Part shown: one piece after another, positions 3,604 through 36,825 of the stretch
Numbering within the stretch: the stretch's first letter is position 1
Layout of the letters: every line of letters begins with the position of its first letter
Virus record (IMG/VR): IMGVR_UViG_2737471827_000006
Span: 1 to 42,725 of that record
Source of the DNA: a virus
Taxonomy: Duplodnaviria > Heunggongvirae > Uroviricota > Caudoviricetes
Length of the DNA: 42,725 nucleotides
Strand: one strand, 5' to 3'
Program-made: the position numbers and the translations under genes
Notes under the pieces: generated by a model
The model's database searches: none
Told to the model about the DNA's origin: nothing
Seen by the model: the letters and a program-made list of their open reading frames with translations, nothing else

Positions 3604-3889
3604 TACTGATAGCGCCATAACGTGAGCGGTAATTACGCAGGCGCGGGTCAATTTCAGGGAAGTGGGTATATGTGGCTTTGCGGAATGGTCGGATTGATGT
3701 CTGGTAAATTCGCTCGCGTTCTTCTTTCTCTGCAAGCCATATACAGTGGCGAAATTCCTTTTCCTCTTTCGTTTCCTGCGGTAGAGACATTATCCGGTCG
3801 TAGTTTTTTCTGAATTTATCCAGCACCTCCGATACGGAATTGCCGGAACAGCGGCGCGCGTCATCCGCACCATACAGAGGCGCTGGCAT
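3596..3889 (-). CDS. Hypothetical early-left protein
   Basis: 97 aa ORF with ordinary composition in operon context. Confidence 0.5.
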
Positions 3890-3912
3890 AATGGGAGCCT
3901 TATTTTCAGTAA

Positions 3913-4500
3913 TCAGAAAGGAGGGTAATCGTTCTGGCTGTAACCATAATCATCTGCATGATTCTGGCTTACGTTTTTAGAGCGATTGTCTTTATCTTTG
4001 AGATTGGCAACCATGTTGGCGATAGTTTCTGGTTGCTTGCCTTCTGCCTTTTCTTTAAGGGTTTGACCTGTTTGTGCAATAAACGGGATGCGTATTTCCA
4101 TCTGGTAGCTGTCTGCGCCAGTCTTTTTGTTTGTGGTTAATACTTTCTGGAGCACTAACCCGATTTTCTTTCCATGAAATTCAGGTGCAACAAATTTACT
4201 GGCGGAAACCATATGTTGCGTTAATTGTCCAATCCCGGCACACCCCATCATGGCGTGGACGACATTTGCGCCAAATTTATTTTCCGTTCCGTCATTTTTC
4301 TGAACACAGACGCTAAGATATTGGATTTTACGTCCGTCGTCGGATTCGCCAGAAAACTCAATAAATTTGGCTCCTTTTTCTGATTGCTTTAGTTCTGCTT
4401 CAGTAATGGTAATGATATGAGCGCCAGTTTCGTTAATAAAACCACCTTGCCCTGCGGTCAGTGCTGCTTCTTCGTTATAAGTAAAAATCACGTTGCTCAT
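3913..4500 (-). CDS. Phage SSB-like protein (DUF669-like) partnered with Sak4
   Basis: 195 aa; acidic aromatic C-terminal tip (DDYGYSQNDYPPF) reminiscent of SSB tails; sits immediately downstream of a Sak4-type ATPase, a known pairing. Confidence 0.65.
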   Translation of the reverse strand: MSNVIFTYNEEAALTAGQGGFINETGAHIITITEAELKQSEKGAKFIEFSGESDDGRKIQYLSVCVQKNDGTENKFGANVVHAMMGCAGIGQLTQHMVSASKFVAPEFHGKKIGLVLQKVLTTNKKTGADSYQMEIRIPFIAQTGQTLKEKAEGKQPETIANMVANLKDKDNRSKNVSQNHADDYGYSQNDYPPF

Positions 4501-5177
4501 GCGGCGTTTTCCTTAATTTGATGAACATTATTGATGCCGTAGTAATCACAAACAGTGGCATCGACGAAAGAGAGATCGTTATCAATCTCATTGGAGTCAA
4601 ACATTCCCATTGGGGATTTAACAGTGTCTGCACCGTTGTTTTTTGTGGTGAAAAAGAACTGGTCATCACGGGTAAGGGTGCGAAGAACTATAGTAAACAT
4701 GCCTTCGACAGTGATTTTCTCGTCCAGCATTTTGCCGATAGTTTTCATTTTCACGCGCCCCATAGGGGTTTCTTCGGTGTGTGCAAGAAAATAGACTCTC
4801 AGGTCATCAGGTGCATCCTGTGCAGCCTTAATCACCTCCCATGCGTGGCGGCCTATCTCAGTAAATTTATCAAACGATTTTTCTTCTGAGCGGCGCATAA
4901 ACTCATTGCTCATCACATACTGGAAGTCATCAACAATAACGATTCTTTTCCCGTATTCGTGAGCACGCTTAATTACGGCAACTATTACGTCCCATTTGTC
5001 AGTGGTAACTACGGTTCCTTTTTTTGCTCTGGCATCCCATGCAAGCCAGTCTTTTGATTTAAATGGTAGCGGCTTGCCTATTGGTTTTATAAGTATTGCT
5101 TCCTCTGGATTGATATTTCTCATGCTGGTTGATTTTCCGGTGCCAGATTCACCGAGTATTAATGTCGCAGTTCCCAT
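4497..5177 (-). CDS. Sak4-like recombination ATPase (RecA-fold)
   Basis: 226 aa; Walker A GESGTGKST near the N-terminus and Walker B-like IVIVDDF; occupies the exo/bet position. Confidence 0.8.
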   Translation of the reverse strand: MGTATLILGESGTGKSTSMRNINPEEAILIKPIGKPLPFKSKDWLAWDARAKKGTVVTTDKWDVIVAVIKRAHEYGKRIVIVDDFQYVMSNEFMRRSEEKSFDKFTEIGRHAWEVIKAAQDAPDDLRVYFLAHTEETPMGRVKMKTIGKMLDEKITVEGMFTIVLRTLTRDDQFFFTTKNNGADTVKSPMGMFDSNEIDNDLSFVDATVCDYYGINNVHQIKENAA

Positions 5178-5484: not shown

Positions 5485-5617
5485 TTTTTGGGACTCCTGG
5501 CTGATTAAGTATGTCGATAAGGCGTTTCCATCCGTCACGTAATTTACGGGTGATTCGTTCAAGTAAAGATTCGGAAGGGCAGCCAGCAACAGGCCACCCT
5601 GCAATGGCATATTGCAT
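5453..5617 (-). CDS. cIII: CIII (FtsH inhibitor that stabilises CII)
   Basis: 54 aa from internal ATG; MQYAIAGWPVAGCPSESLLERITRKLRDGWKRLIDILNQPGVPKNGSNTYGYPD matches lambda CIII as I recall it; AAGGAG RBS 5 nt upstream. Confidence 0.85.
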   Translation of the reverse strand: MQYAIAGWPVAGCPSESLLERITRKLRDGWKRLIDILNQPGVPKNGSNTYGYPD

Positions 5618-5645
5618 GGTGTGCTCCTTATTTATACATAACGAA

Positions 5646-6287: not shown

Positions 6288-6614
6288 TCAAATAAGTGGT
6301 TTGCTGCCTAATTTCATTTTCTGGCGACCAACACAAGTCACACCCATTTCACTGCGTGGCTTGCTGTACCATGTGCGCTGATTCTTGCGCTCAATACGTT
6401 GCAGGTTGCTTTCAATCTGTTCGTGGTATTCAGCCAGCACCGTAAGGTCTATCGGATTCAGTGCGCTTTCTACTCGTGATTTCGGTTTGCGATTCAGCGA
6501 GAGAATAGGGCGGTTAACTGGCTTTGCGCTTACCCCAACCAACAGGGGATTTGCTGCTTTCCATTGAGCCTGTTTCTCTGCGCGACGTTCGCGGCGGCGT
6601 GTTTGTGCATCCAT
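6288..6614 (-). CDS. N: Antitermination protein N
   Basis: 108 aa; arginine-rich N-terminus MDAQTRRRERRAEKQAQWKAANPLLVGVSAKPVNRPILSLNRKPKSRVESALNPIDLTVLAEYH closely matches lambda N as I recall it; AGGAGA RBS. Confidence 0.95.
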   Translation of the reverse strand: MDAQTRRRERRAEKQAQWKAANPLLVGVSAKPVNRPILSLNRKPKSRVESALNPIDLTVLAEYHEQIESNLQRIERKNQRTWYSKPRSEMGVTCVGRQKMKLGSKPLI

Positions 6615-6812
6615 CTGGATTCTCCTGTCAGTTAGCTTTGGTGATTGGATGGCCGGCGCTGAACCCCGGCTTACTGGTTAGAGCGCCCGCACTACCAGTG
6701 ACGCTGTCTTGAGGCGCAGATTGGTTACTGCTTGCCATGAGCGCTGTTTATACATTGGTCGAGCATCAGCCTGCTCATTCATCCAATCCCAAAGCCTTCT
6801 GCTTTGAATGCT

Positions 6813-6842
6813 GCCCTTCTTCAGGGCTTAATTTTTAAGAGC
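6813..6842 (-). promoter_or_regulatory. nutL (boxA plus boxB hairpin)
   Basis: Minus-strand reading GGCTCTTAA-AAATTAA-GCCCTGAAGAAGGGC; boxB is a perfect GCCCT/AGGGC hairpin as in lambda nutL; boxA differs from lambda CGCTCTTAA at one position. Confidence 0.85.
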
Positions 6843-6875
6843 CTCACCTTCATGGTGGTCAGTGCGTCCTGCTGA

Positions 6876-6911
6876 TGGGTAAACTTTATCGAAATGATAA
6901 ATTAATGGCAA
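6876..6911 (-). promoter_or_regulatory. pL-like promoter
   Basis: Minus strand: -35 TTGCCA, 17-nt spacer, -10 TAAAGT, then a leader beginning ATCAGCAGGACGCACTGACCACCATGAAGGTGA that matches the lambda pL transcript start as I recall it. Confidence 0.6.
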
Positions 6912-6960
6912 TAGCAAAATGATAAATTTCTTTGATTTTAAAATATCATATTGATTTTCA
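6885..6960. promoter_or_regulatory. oL operator cluster
   Basis: 17-bp palindrome TTTATCGAAATGATAAA overlapping the -10, plus further ATGATAAAT half-site repeats; the same half-site recurs in oR. Confidence 0.6.
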
Positions 6961-7113
6961 TGGTGTTTTATTTTTGTTGCAGGAATTCGACAGGAGAAAT
7001 GAAGAGGCTTGAGGGAGATCTGGATTGCGTGGTTTAGCAAGTTGTATTTATCAATTTTTCACTAAATACAATTGGTTATGTGTTTTTAGGTGGGGCGATC
7101 GTGAGGCAAAGAA

Positions 7114-7135
7114 AACCCGGCGCTGAGGCCGGGTT
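7114..7135 (-). terminator. Intrinsic terminator downstream of the protease gene
   Basis: Perfect 8-bp stem AACCCGGC/GCCGGGTT with 6-nt loop; followed by TTCTTTG on the minus strand. Confidence 0.6.
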
Positions 7136-7147
7136 GTGAGGAATTAA

Positions 7148-7333
7148 TTACAGAGCAAAGAGATCATGCATTAGGTTGCTGTTCATCTGGTGGTTGAATT
7201 GATACGGCTCCAATTCCTTCTTGATCTCGTTCAGGTGTTGTTCCGCTTTTTTTGCCAGATCGTGACCTTCTTGGATCTGGCTTTCCAACATCTTGTTGAG
7301 AATTTCCATCTCCGGTTGCAGATTCTTCGGCAT
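7148..7333 (-). CDS. Possible small overlapping ORF (61 aa) in an alternative frame of the protease gene 3' end
   Basis: Internal ATG of track ORF 7148..7423 preceded by GAGGA about 9 nt upstream; non-low-complexity helical-looking sequence, whereas the protease-frame tail here is low complexity. Confidence 0.3.
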   Translation of the reverse strand: MPKNLQPEMEILNKMLESQIQEGHDLAKKAEQHLNEIKKELEPYQFNHQMNSNLMHDLFAL

Positions 7334-8165
7334 TAGCTTTTTCCTCTTTTTGTAGATACGTTGTACAATCAATAACCCTCGGCTTTCCAAATGTTGGAAT
7401 GTCACCATTATGAATTTTGTCACAGAAAAGATTATAGAGTATTTCTGTTATACCTTTAGGATGCTCAACACACTTGAAAAGTTCCTTGGCTTCTTTTCTG
7501 TCGATAACAAATCCATGTGAAGGATATGAGGCTATTAGTTTGCCTAACGCCCCTTCTTTTAGGCTGCTTGGTTTGTCTGCTAATCGTTGGCCATAAGTGA
7601 TAGCTATACTCATTGCGCGCTGATGTTCACCAAGCTTTATTGGATCTATCTGTGCGGCCATAGGTGCTATCAACGCTTCTGTAAGTCTGGTCGCGATATC
7701 AGCAGACATTTTGGTACTTATCTGATTTTCGTATCTTATCTTAACAAGGTGTGAGTTAAACGCTGAAATAGAGCGTTCCTTTAGAGCATCAAGAGCTGTC
7801 ATGATAGCTAAACCAGAACTCATCTCACCTATTTCATCGTTTTTTTTCAGTTGGATATCTAATGGCCCAAGCTCCCCCATGTCACCAATAACAAGTTTAT
7901 TGGCTGCTATAGCTATTAGTGTACCAGCACTTTTGCATGGTCCAACAACTAAAAGTGTTACCGTTTCATAATGGTGCTGTAGAGCTCTACCTATACGATA
8001 ACCTGCATTTGGATCACCGCCATAAGTAGCAACACAGAAGATAACATTCTCTTTTAATCCATGTTGTGACTTACGTTTCTTGATTTCATTGGTGAGATCA
8101 AGATAACCATCACGATGAATATCGCCTGTATACACATAAACATCATGATTTTCAATAGAATTCAT
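7164..8165 (-). CDS. ClpP-fold / SDH-family-like serine protease at the rexAB position
   Basis: 333 aa; region VIFCVATYGGDPNAGYRIGRALQHHYETVTLLVVGPCKSAGTLIAIAANKLVIGDMGELGPLD resembles ClpP/SppA/SDH peptidases with a G-x-x-x-S-x-G nucleophile elbow (Ser79); charged low-complexity C-terminal tail; AGGGAG RBS; AT-rich. Confidence 0.7.
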   Translation of the reverse strand: MNSIENHDVYVYTGDIHRDGYLDLTNEIKKRKSQHGLKENVIFCVATYGGDPNAGYRIGRALQHHYETVTLLVVGPCKSAGTLIAIAANKLVIGDMGELGPLDIQLKKNDEIGEMSSGLAIMTALDALKERSISAFNSHLVKIRYENQISTKMSADIATRLTEALIAPMAAQIDPIKLGEHQRAMSIAITYGQRLADKPSSLKEGALGKLIASYPSHGFVIDRKEAKELFKCVEHPKGITEILYNLFCDKIHNGDIPTFGKPRVIDCTTYLQKEEKANAEESATGDGNSQQDVGKPDPRRSRSGKKSGTTPERDQEGIGAVSIQPPDEQQPNA

Positions 8166-8331
8166 TCGTTAAACTCCCTGCTGTGGTTACGATGAATGTA
8201 TTCATGTTGAAGCTAAGCCATAGCGGCTTGTCATCATCACCAATCTGGCGGAATTGACTGTTCATAAATCACAATTGGAATTACCCAAACGTCTCTTCAG
8301 GCCACTGGCTACCAGCTATGTGACGATGAAG

Positions 8332-9036
8332 TCACGAATTTTTCAGCCACTCCCTTGCCTCGATGTCATCCAGATGGCGAGATTGCTTCAGAATACCAGC
8401 CACATACTCCACCTTTGCTACTTGATGATAAGGCAACGTTATTGGCCTGTGGTCCTGGTTAATGCTTGTAAATTGGTATTCTCCATCTCTGTCATAGCCA
8501 AGAACCTTAATCATGTTGTGTCCTTCAACGGTTCTGACAAACACCTCATCACCCGGGAATACTTTGGTGTTAGGCTCAATGAGTACATATTCTCCTGATT
8601 TTATTCTGGGCCACATGCTGTCTCCTTTCACACGAAGACCAAAGGCATCTGGATCATCGCTATAAATTTTGAGCCACCCATCGCGCTCTTCGGTCATCTC
8701 GATGGCACCATCAACACCAAGAATTGCCTCACCAACCACGCGCACTAACCCTTTTCTTACCTGACCTACAAAAGTTAAAGAATCTGAGCATGATGCAATT
8801 GGTGTTACATCATGTACCAAATCAAGCCACCCATTAGGTAACCCAAGTGCAGCTTCAAATTTTCTTGCTAGTTTATCCCCTATGTTTCGAGTGCTTTTTT
8901 CACCGGAGACTTGCGTGAGTTGAGAAGGGCTAACCCCAAGCTTATCGGCAAAGCTTGCATTAGTGTTACCCGCGATTTTTTTATGCTCATCTAGCAAAAA
9001 CGCCAGATTCGATTTGCGAATATCTTTGTTTTCCAT
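8332..9036 (-). CDS. cI: CI-type prophage repressor (HTH plus S24 LexA-like autopeptidase)
   Basis: 234 aa; N-terminal HTH (NASFADKLGVSPSQLTQV); C-terminal S24 domain with GDSM serine motif; divergent from cro across an operator-rich intergenic region. Confidence 0.9.
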   Translation of the reverse strand: MENKDIRKSNLAFLLDEHKKIAGNTNASFADKLGVSPSQLTQVSGEKSTRNIGDKLARKFEAALGLPNGWLDLVHDVTPIASCSDSLTFVGQVRKGLVRVVGEAILGVDGAIEMTEERDGWLKIYSDDPDAFGLRVKGDSMWPRIKSGEYVLIEPNTKVFPGDEVFVRTVEGHNMIKVLGYDRDGEYQFTSINQDHRPITLPYHQVAKVEYVAGILKQSRHLDDIEAREWLKNS

Positions 9037-9053: not shown

Positions 9054-9139
9054 ATTTAGCAAATGGATAAATACGCAATATGATAAATTTACATTGCAGT
9101 TGATTTATCAAAATGGTAAAGTTATTCTGTATGATAAAC
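9054..9139. promoter_or_regulatory. oR operator cluster with pRM/pR
   Basis: Three 17-bp imperfect palindromes (TTTAGCAAATGGATAAA, TTTATCAAAATGGTAAA, TTATTCTGTATGATAAA) plus a TGATAAATT half-site between divergent cI and cro. Confidence 0.6.
9094..9122 (+). promoter_or_regulatory. pR-like promoter
   Basis: -35 TTGCAG, 17-nt spacer, -10 TAAAGT (the same -10 as pL), overlapped by an operator palindrome; GGAGG RBS for cro about 20 nt downstream. Confidence 0.45.
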
Positions 9140-36408: not shown

Positions 36409-36825
36409 ATGGCAAAAGTCAGTATCACGGGAGAATTGCGTCATTTAGCTGCAGCACATAAGTATGCTCAAATGCTTGCCGATTATATTTCAAAGGGTTC
36501 CCAGTTCTGGTGTTTTGGTTCGTTAGGCGGTTTTGAACGTAACTATGATGCGATGGCTGCCAACATCAGGAAAATTCACTTAAAGCTACCTGGCGATAAA
36601 CCCTGGCCTCCAGAAGCATCTCTGAGTGAACGGACATGTGATAATTTTTTGGTATATGCTCAGCATCTTTATATCGATGAACACTATCAGATATTGGCAA
36701 TCATCAGCCCAAACGCTCATCAGCAAGCTGATTCGATGCTTCCCCGGCTGATAAAATTAGCAGAGGAAACCTTCATAGAACTTCCTCCTGATGAACTCGA
36801 AAAATTGAAAACCTACGATTCATAA
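36409..36825 (+). CDS. Hypothetical protein B of accessory two-gene operon
   Basis: 138 aa; start 1 nt after the stop of gene A; followed directly by a strong terminator. Confidence 0.6.
   Translation: MAKVSITGELRHLAAAHKYAQMLADYISKGSQFWCFGSLGGFERNYDAMAANIRKIHLKLPGDKPWPPEASLSERTCDNFLVYAQHLYIDEHYQILAIISPNAHQQADSMLPRLIKLAEETFIELPPDELEKLKTYDS

Follow-up and report, generated by a model that had tools for sequence, protein, structure and literature searches.

A gene for a 333-residue ClpP-fold serine protease, located directly downstream of the cI-type repressor gene in a 42,725-nt stretch of phage DNA (Caudoviricetes; IMG/VR record IMGVR_UViG_2737471827_000006, positions 1 to 42,725; hereafter the window), overlaps at its 3' end with a second, much smaller gene in the +1 frame. 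Comparisons across homologues indicate that this small open reading frame (ORF) is a real, conserved dual-coding gene with its own Shine-Dalgarno (SD) sequence and ATG. The two genes are carried on a portable cassette that may act against superinfecting phages. The region had been singled out in an earlier note made from the letters of the window and a list of its ORFs. The main features are as follows.

7164..8165 (stop included), minus strand: protease gene, 333 aa, ATG start (ORF call)
7929..7931, minus strand: codon of Ser79, the predicted nucleophile, in the motif C77-K78-S79-x-G81, invariant in 45 homologues
7148..7333, minus strand: small gene, 61 codons plus stop (MPKNLQPEMEILNKMLESQIQEGHDLAKKAEQHLNEIKKELEPYQFNHQMNSNLMHDLFAL), in the +1 frame relative to the protease, ATG at 7333..7331
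7342..7346, minus strand: SD-like GAGGA, 8 nt before the small-ORF ATG (read from the sequence)

The protease comprises a folded part (residues 1 to 262; 7380-8165) and a charged, disordered C-terminal tail (residues 263 to 333; 7167-7379). The small gene shares 167 nt with the tail codons (170 nt including the protease stop, 7164-7333) and ends 16 nt beyond that stop. The tail is hydrophilic from about residue 263 (71 aa; grand average of hydropathy [GRAVY], -1.45) and is modeled as disordered from residue 275 (predicted local distance difference test [pLDDT], <50). The earlier note was right about the charge of the tail and slightly overstated its length, given there as 80 codons and closer to 60 to 70 residues. 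Every protease homologue has a charged, disordered tail of this kind. The note had also seen the 61-codon ORF in the alternative frame, with its GAGGA ribosome-binding site (RBS), and this ORF proved to be conserved and protein coding.

Homologues were gathered from E. coli variants, a Klebsiella phage, and Serratia, Klebsiella, Bartonella, Neisseria, Malonomonas, and Burkholderia loci, together with 80 IMG/VR loci, and the set was reduced to 66 distinct full-length protease homologues (35 to 100% identity). A +1-frame ORF with an ATG was present in all 66 of them; it was 46 to 90 codons long, started within or near the tail-coding DNA, and usually ended 4 to 60 nt past the protease stop. An SD-like 4-mer preceded the chosen ATG in 54 of the 66 homologues, compared with a background of 14%, a figure that is biased upward because the SD partly guided the choice of start.

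Frame-neutral nucleotide alignments were made for each of three independent clades (A, B, and C) and examined for the periodicity of substitutions. Upstream of the small-ORF ATG, variability peaked at protease codon position 3 (0.46 to 0.67) in every 30-nt window. From the ATG on, the peak moved to position 3 of the small ORF, which is position 1 of the protease, and the protease third positions dropped to the level of variability of the second positions. The ATG was the exact point of this switch of codon phase in all three clades (chi-square P = 7e-5 for A, 3e-4 for B, and 0.02 for C), and the same switch was seen in 5 of 6 more distant comparisons (one nested trio included). The motif (A)GAGGA was kept at the same spacing in clades A and B. 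The effect can be read directly in the peptide LEPYQ, which is identical in the window and in a 59%-identical Klebsiella homologue; the protease frame there reads GAVS versus GTLP, and all three changes are synonymous in the +1 frame. In every comparison, the small peptide was better conserved than the tail that shares its DNA (e.g., 0.54 versus 0.29 and 0.79 versus 0.64), and purifying selection was stronger on the small protein than on the tail. The tail frame is maintained as well: given the small peptide, the protease frame was open by chance in 0.05 to 6% of synonymous resamplings (at most of the loci with an overlap of at least ∼140 nt). Because it so rarely stays open by chance, we consider the 167 nt truly dual coding.

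Two other accounts of the small ORF must be weighed at this point. The ORF could be an artifact of composition, since a hydrophilic tail without T at codon position 2 leaves the +1 frame free of stops; given the tail peptide alone, the +1 frame was indeed open in roughly half of synonymous resamplings (range, 0.09 to 1.0). For this reason, openness of the +1 frame was rejected as evidence by itself. The evidence used here is instead the switch in periodicity at the ATG in three clades and in 5 of the 6 distant comparisons, together with protease third positions as constrained as second positions and a small peptide better conserved than the tail, and these make an artifact extremely unlikely. 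The other account, which the earlier note had entertained, is a programmed +1 frameshift that would fuse the protease core to a helical C terminus. The +1 frame is open for 99 codons in the window, well upstream of the ATG, and a run of seven A residues lies within the overlap, as a frameshift would have it; however, the signal of +1 selection starts at the ATG and not earlier, the upstream open stretch is not conserved (74 to 76 codons in close relatives), both the ATG and the SD are conserved, and the A7 run is absent from relatives reading LARKAEQ. In some distant homologues (loci L057, L069, L077, L078, and L102), moreover, the small ORF overlaps the protease gene by only 23 to 65 nt and extends 73 to 169 nt past its stop. 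This near separation of the two ORFs and the onset of the signal at the ATG indicate a two-gene operon and not a frameshift product, and we regard the frameshift as very unlikely. The A7 run itself (T7 on the plus strand; 7248-7254) lies in the dual-coding region, where the two frames read LAKKAE and SGKKSG, and is a possible hotspot of slippage or mutation; as a programmed slippery site it can probably be dismissed, since close relatives lack it.

The product of the small gene is predicted by AlphaFold2 to be one continuous helix (pLDDT, 86), with a heptad pattern of 3-4 hydrophobic spacing. Its predicted peptides include NLQPEMEILNK, AEQHLNEIK (tryptic), and ELEPYQFNHQMNSNLMHDLFAL. No signal peptide or membrane segment was read from its sequence. 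Neither this protein nor ten divergent versions of it belonged to a family in Pfam, NCBIfam, PHROG, or PADLOC, and the search of the small ORF against PADLOC-DB v2.0.0 gave only a chance-level match (E = 0.023). The protein is nearly absent from databases, with 8 clusters among 5.8 billion proteins and 4 representatives among 1.84 billion clusters. The small ORF has nevertheless been called in a few annotations, as a 61-aa product (P0124) exists for one contig (L006). In two NCBI records, the indexed "gene" range spans the protease start to the small-ORF stop (L006, 6001-7018; L019, 5001-6039). RNA structure around the small-ORF start was no more stable than that of shuffled sequence (z = +0.88), giving no sign of a sequestered RBS.

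That the protease gene itself is beyond chance is evident from its more than 1,500 homologues and from variation in its core that lies mostly at third codon positions. The protein belongs to phrog_21683 (E = 8e-185), for which the PHROG function label is "unknown," and PGAP names the gene in E. coli genomes "SDH family Clp fold serine proteinase." The earlier note had described a ClpP/SppA/SDH-like core. What holds of this description is the fold, which is the ClpP/crotonase fold, and the nucleophile elbow; "ClpP/SDH" is correct at the level of fold. Membership in a family is another matter, as each of the models fell short of its curated cutoff: PF01972 SDH_protease (29.6 bits, cutoff 31.3; E = 4.4e-7), PF00574 Clp_protease (19.0 bits, cutoff 20.2), NF047768 Clp_like_SDH (36.7 bits, cutoff 250; E = 3.2e-9), and the head-maturation model NF045542 (34.4 bits, cutoff 120). 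A match to the head-maturation protease family phrog_1684 was also weak (E = 3.9e-7). The best profile matches (PF01972 and NF047768) span the nucleophile region, with only ∼65 residues aligned, and many of the protease homologues carry a precomputed PF01972 match that is mostly weak. Because the SDH, ClpP, and head-protease matches are all below their curated cutoffs, we treat the protein as a member of a distinct SDH-related subfamily. The note had looked to profile searches and structure prediction for a verdict, and these subthreshold matches together with a ClpP-type fold match bear it out to that extent.

The nucleophile elbow GPCKSAG is present as described, with its serine at residue 79, and this serine is invariant in the 45 homologues. 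The family profile places CK-S79-AG on AASAG of 1510-N and AASMG of ClpP, which contain the catalytic serines of those enzymes. Among the residues invariant in the 45 homologues, down to 41% identity, are K78, S79, D103, K108, H181, and H217. S79, D103, H181, and H217 thus follow the sequence order Ser-Asp-His, which is the catalytic order of the SDH family; K108 is invariant too, so that a Ser-Lys dyad is an alternative. Given these invariant residues and the alignment of S79 with known catalytic serines, the protease is very probably active as an enzyme. No signal peptide or transmembrane segment was detected in its sequence.

The features neighboring the two genes are listed below.

8332..9036, minus strand: cI-type repressor gene, 234 aa, helix-turn-helix (HTH) plus S24 autopeptidase (Peptidase_S24, E = 3.8e-16)
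8166..8331, minus strand: spacer/leader between cI and the protease gene, 166 nt, holding the protease SD AGGGAG
7104..7135, minus strand: intrinsic terminator closing the module, AACCCGGCCTCAGCGCCGGGTT plus TTCTTTGCCT (hairpin plus T-run)
6889-6953 and 7044-7057, no strand assigned: OL-type operator repeats AAATGATAAAT, the leftward promoter and operator (PL/OL) region just past the cassette (repeat families D1, D2, D4, I1, I2, I5, and I10)
6288..6614, minus strand: N antiterminator gene, on the other flank of the slot (ORF; N in the annotation of matching records)
7016..8310, minus strand: exchangeable cassette (leader, protease gene, small gene, and terminator), approximate, from match limits in E. 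coli prophages

Copies of the operator-like repeat also occur at the rightward operator (OR) between cI and cro (9061-9123), and the order is therefore N, PL/OL, cassette, cI, OR, cro. In lambda, rexAB sits between cI and OL/PL, and the protease cassette fills the equivalent slot. The earlier note had placed the 333-aa ORF in the rexAB slot directly downstream of cI, and with the 166-nt gap, N beyond, and the OL and OR repeats located, this placement is confirmed. The protease SD lies 8 nt before its ATG, and no minus-strand terminator was predicted between cI and the protease gene in a terminator scan of 8166..8331. The terminator that the note had assigned to the gene is also there: a minus-strand hairpin at 7135..7114, which begins 13 nt past the small-ORF stop and is followed by TTTTCTTT. 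The gene is AT-richer than its neighbors, as claimed, if modestly so (39.8% GC versus 44.3% for cI, 50.2% for N, and 45.4% for the early region). No RNA family was found in an Rfam search of 6600-8400.

The cI of the window is of the H-19B/BP-4795 immunity type, with ∼96% nucleotide identity to the cI of H-19B, BP-4795, and Shiga toxin 1 (Stx1) phages. E. coli prophages with a different repressor share only the stretch from 7016 to 8310 (positions 16 to 1311 of a query spanning window 7000-8331), and it is this that defines the extent of the cassette; the upstream boundary near 8310 corresponds to the end of these matches at query position 1311. The complete cassette (at least 80% of window 7000-8331) was matched in 28 of 5,426 complete E. 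coli genomes, some of them with a different cI, and a 100% identical copy is found in a P22-like prophage of E. coli strain STEC346 that has a scaffold-type head module. Conversely, phages with the same cI and N (H-19B, BP-4795, and many Stx phages) have no protease cassette. In BP-4795, the same cI and N flanks enclose a PD-Lambda-2 system (PADLOC, E = 2.5e-42 and 3.8e-50), which is direct evidence that defense cargo is exchanged at this site. The BP-4795 slot (L003, 1994-3335) holds homologues of PD-Lambda-2 A and B and a third gene that matches PD-T4-9_C (E = 3.2e-11).

The arrangement recurs beyond E. coli: Serratia, Klebsiella, and Bartonella prophages, whose repressors are unrelated, also have the protease gene after the repressor and on its strand. 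In a set of 54 nonredundant upstream neighbors, 24 had Peptidase_S24 and 21 had HTH_3; the upstream neighbor was an S24 or HTH repressor in about half. In Klebsiella prophages L009 to L012, the protease follows a short non-S24 repressor and is divergent from YdaS/YdaT-like genes; other cargo sites of these prophages carry AIPR, Eco57I, or DNA methylase genes. In an E. coli prophage, as in a P2-like phage of Burkholderia, an integrase is the neighbor of the protease gene, and a Methylovorus filamentous phage (inovirus) that was deposited as a plasmid has a homologue between zot and int, with the +1 ORF present. The latter element, Methylovorus glucosotrophus pMsip02 (NC_012972.1; L104; 9.8 kb), is the replicative form of a filamentous phage (zot, DUF2523, major coat protein, and integrase); its protease homologue lies at 3711-4676, and its +1 small ORF is preceded by GAGGA. 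A Neisseria copy is chromosomal, with no phage genes nearby. Overall, the module occurs in E. coli (including Shiga toxin-producing E. coli [STEC]), Klebsiella, Serratia, Salmonella, Yersinia, Bartonella, and others. Its association with varied repressors, integrase sites, an inovirus, and a phage-free chromosome, and its exchange behind the same flanks, identify the cassette as portable accessory cargo (a "moron"). The leader between cI and the protease gene aligned only within E. coli and was not conserved beyond, and an upstream small ORF annotated in Klebsiella phage ST13-OXA48phi12.4 was discarded as a further component, since it is not conserved.

What such cargo does is a matter of judgment. 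Because rexAB, bstA, and PD-Lambda-2 occupy the same site, we put the chances at slightly better than even that the protease and the small protein make up a lysogen-expressed anti-phage module, acting by exclusion or abortive infection. Inserted into the immunity region of the prophage, with cI on one side and OL/PL on the other, the cassette would be co-transcribed with cI in the lysogen, as is suggested by the lack of a terminator between the two, the terminator after the second gene, and the recurrence of the repressor-then-protease order. The protease would be the effector and the small coiled-coil protein its obligatory partner (inhibitor, bait, sensor, or regulator); through the overlap, the two genes would stay linked and be expressed together. 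On superinfection, the incoming phage would set free or switch on the protease, and a phage or host target would then be cut by it. A possible mechanism is that an exapted pair resembling a head protease and its scaffold interferes with the assembly of the invader.

It is important to set against this proposal the points that weaken it. The defense role rests on position and cargo-like distribution, and the positional argument is statistical and not specific. Co-transcription with cI is deduced from the absence of a predicted terminator and nothing else, and the role given to the small protein (inhibitor, adaptor, or substrate) is pure conjecture. PADLOC-DB v2.0.0 matches neither the protease nor the small protein, PHROG has the label "unknown function," and full-text literature searches yielded no paper on the protease family. 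In addition, an iterated profile search meant to unite the small proteins of all clades stopped at 17 of 66 and found no cross-clade homology, and the overlap may have originated repeatedly across clades.

Other functions can be proposed for the same two genes. A toxin-antitoxin (TA)-like addiction module, in which the protease is toxic unless checked by the small helix and the prophage or mobile element is stabilized with no dedicated anti-phage role, would suit two tightly coupled genes of which one is small and probably labile, a slot that in BP-4795 holds a HigB-like TA-type system, and a module that rides many kinds of mobile elements, the inovirus included. Yet many TA-like cassettes in this slot are defense systems (PD-Lambda-2 among them), so the two readings overlap, and no known toxin or antitoxin domain was found in Pfam, PADLOC, PHROG, or NCBIfam; we consider addiction rather unlikely. 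A regulator of the lysis-lysogeny switch is unlikely as well. Such an accessory protease would cleave the repressor or a different switch protein (e.g., CII), as ImmA does ImmR, and the repressor-then-protease order on one strand is kept across unrelated repressors, including short non-S24 ones; however, this cI allele is functional in BP-4795 and H-19B, which have no such protease gene, 24 of the 54 upstream repressors have an S24 autopeptidase of their own, and elsewhere the gene adjoins integrases, resides in an inovirus, or lies in a chromosome without a repressor.

There is also a small chance that the module serves lysogenic conversion, targeting host proteins to alter physiology, envelope, or virulence while leaving phages unaffected. 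Its terminator, lower GC content, and inferred expression in the lysogen are those of a moron, and it occurs in pathogens and commensals alike; against this, neither protein has a signal peptide or membrane segment, and the distribution tracks phages of many hosts (Enterobacterales, Bartonella, Burkholderia, Methylovorus, and Neisseria) and not one niche. To a pair of head-maturation protease and scaffold serving the phage's own capsid, we give almost no credence; the earlier note had raised the head-protease role as a counterpossibility. In its favor are the weak, subthreshold matches to NF045542 and phrog_1684 and an architecture (a second, helical product from the 3' end of a protease gene) that recalls lambda C/Nu3 and Mu I/Z. 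However, the scores are far under the cutoffs, and the gene is part of the immunity region, is read leftward, and is terminated before PL. Furthermore, the phage has its own head genes (DUF2213 and DUF2184), the identical gene is found in a P22-like prophage with a scaffold-type head module, and a homologue is found in a filamentous phage, which has no icosahedral head.

Several other features of the window were recorded. The sole Rfam family match is Lambda_thermo, the cIII thermoregulator element, at 5572-5630 on the minus strand (88.5 bits; E = 2e-20), which marks the cIII 5' region of the PL operon. Also in the PL operon, a 226-aa P-loop protein (4497-5177, minus strand) has a weak, partial PADLOC match to mad8 (E = 2.3e-5; 23 residues), which is probably just the Walker A motif. 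The late region (20000-42725) is not lambda-like and was compared with the related prophage of E. coli GZ2408P (∼96% nucleotide identity over aligned segments); by this comparison, it encodes a portal (DUF1073), a capsid protein (DUF2184), and a DUF2213 protein and also has baseplate genes. The phage is mosaic, combining a lambdoid early region with a virion module of another type. The GZ2408P prophage has a YafO-family toxin gene among its tail genes, probably corresponding to 36409-36825 of the window, and it has tRNA-Asn and tRNA-Thr genes downstream of Q, whereas ARAGORN found no tRNA genes in the window (1-42725).

Whatever the function of the module, the 167 nt that code in both frames provide a clear example of a conserved overlapping gene read out of frame in bacteria and phages, as well as a natural system in which to ask why a disordered tail and a helical partner share the same DNA. 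Annotation pipelines miss half of the system, with 4 representatives of the small protein versus more than 1,500 protease homologues, and anyone who clones or knocks out "the protease" by itself would carry along or change a second gene without being aware of it. To our knowledge, this family-wide, unannotated dual-coding architecture is undescribed. If the anti-phage proposal is true, a protease-based module joins the defense cargo of the repressor-adjacent hotspot in temperate phages. Somewhat more tentatively still, with the odds a little short of even, the module may be a new two-gene anti-phage system in which a widespread ClpP-fold protease and an overprinted ∼60-residue coiled coil share a repressor operon.

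Known systems resemble the module in different respects. At the level of the enzyme, SDH-type proteinases (PF01972 and NF047768) are the closest, with the best profile matches, and the invariant Ser, Asp, and His residues of the protease follow one another in that sequence order; the family described here scores below both cutoffs over the ∼65 aligned residues and differs further in its helical middle region, its disordered tail, and the overlapping gene. Unlike ClpP (S14), it has no invariant His ∼25 residues after the Ser, where D103, Q105, and K108 stand (no invariant His at 80-180), and no partner ATPase is encoded near it; unlike SppA (S49) and NfeD 1510-N, it has no membrane anchor. With regard to the overlap, the head protease genes lambda C (ClpP/S49-like, with the second protein encoded in its 3' part) and Mu I contain the nested, in-frame scaffold genes Nu3 and Z within a late head operon, and lambda Rz/Rz1 offers a precedent for an embedded gene in the +1 frame. 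The overlap described here differs from C/Nu3 and I/Z in being out of frame, in its place in the immunity region, and in its conservation throughout a family with more than 1,500 members. A PICI (phage-inducible chromosomal island) two-gene anti-phage system listed in DefenseFinder as FS_HP_SDH_sah reportedly consists of a hypothetical protein and a PF01972 ("SDH_sah") protein and is borne by phage satellites. That name was absent from searchable literature text, and no model for it exists in PADLOC-DB v2. Should its PF01972 protein belong to the family described here, a defense role of relatives is established and the novelty shrinks to the overlapping gene and the repressor-linked prophage context. 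A paper on tail assembly inhibition (Tai) was considered as a parallel and set aside because it concerns an unrelated protein family.

With regard to position, lambda rexA/rexB shares with the module the slot from cI to OL/PL, the strand of cI, a terminator of its own, two genes, and presumed expression in the lysogen. There is no relation in sequence or fold. RexB is a membrane protein; the module instead encodes a soluble protease of the ClpP fold and a helix of 61 aa, and PADLOC gave no Rex match in the module proteins. BstA of Salmonella phage BTP1 and PD-Lambda-2 of BP-4795 (described in PMC9519451) are likewise defense cargo at the same place; they are unrelated proteins, and their anti-phage activity has been experimentally shown, whereas the module is known from sequence. 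The region between cI and N is a recognized site for lysogen-expressed abortive-infection genes such as rexAB and bstA, and BstA homologues are "strikingly" often found downstream of prophage repressors (10.1101/2020.07.13.199331). At the level of the system, the module appears to be a member of none of the systems tested, and what it resembles is the rexAB/bstA class of repressor-linked cargo.

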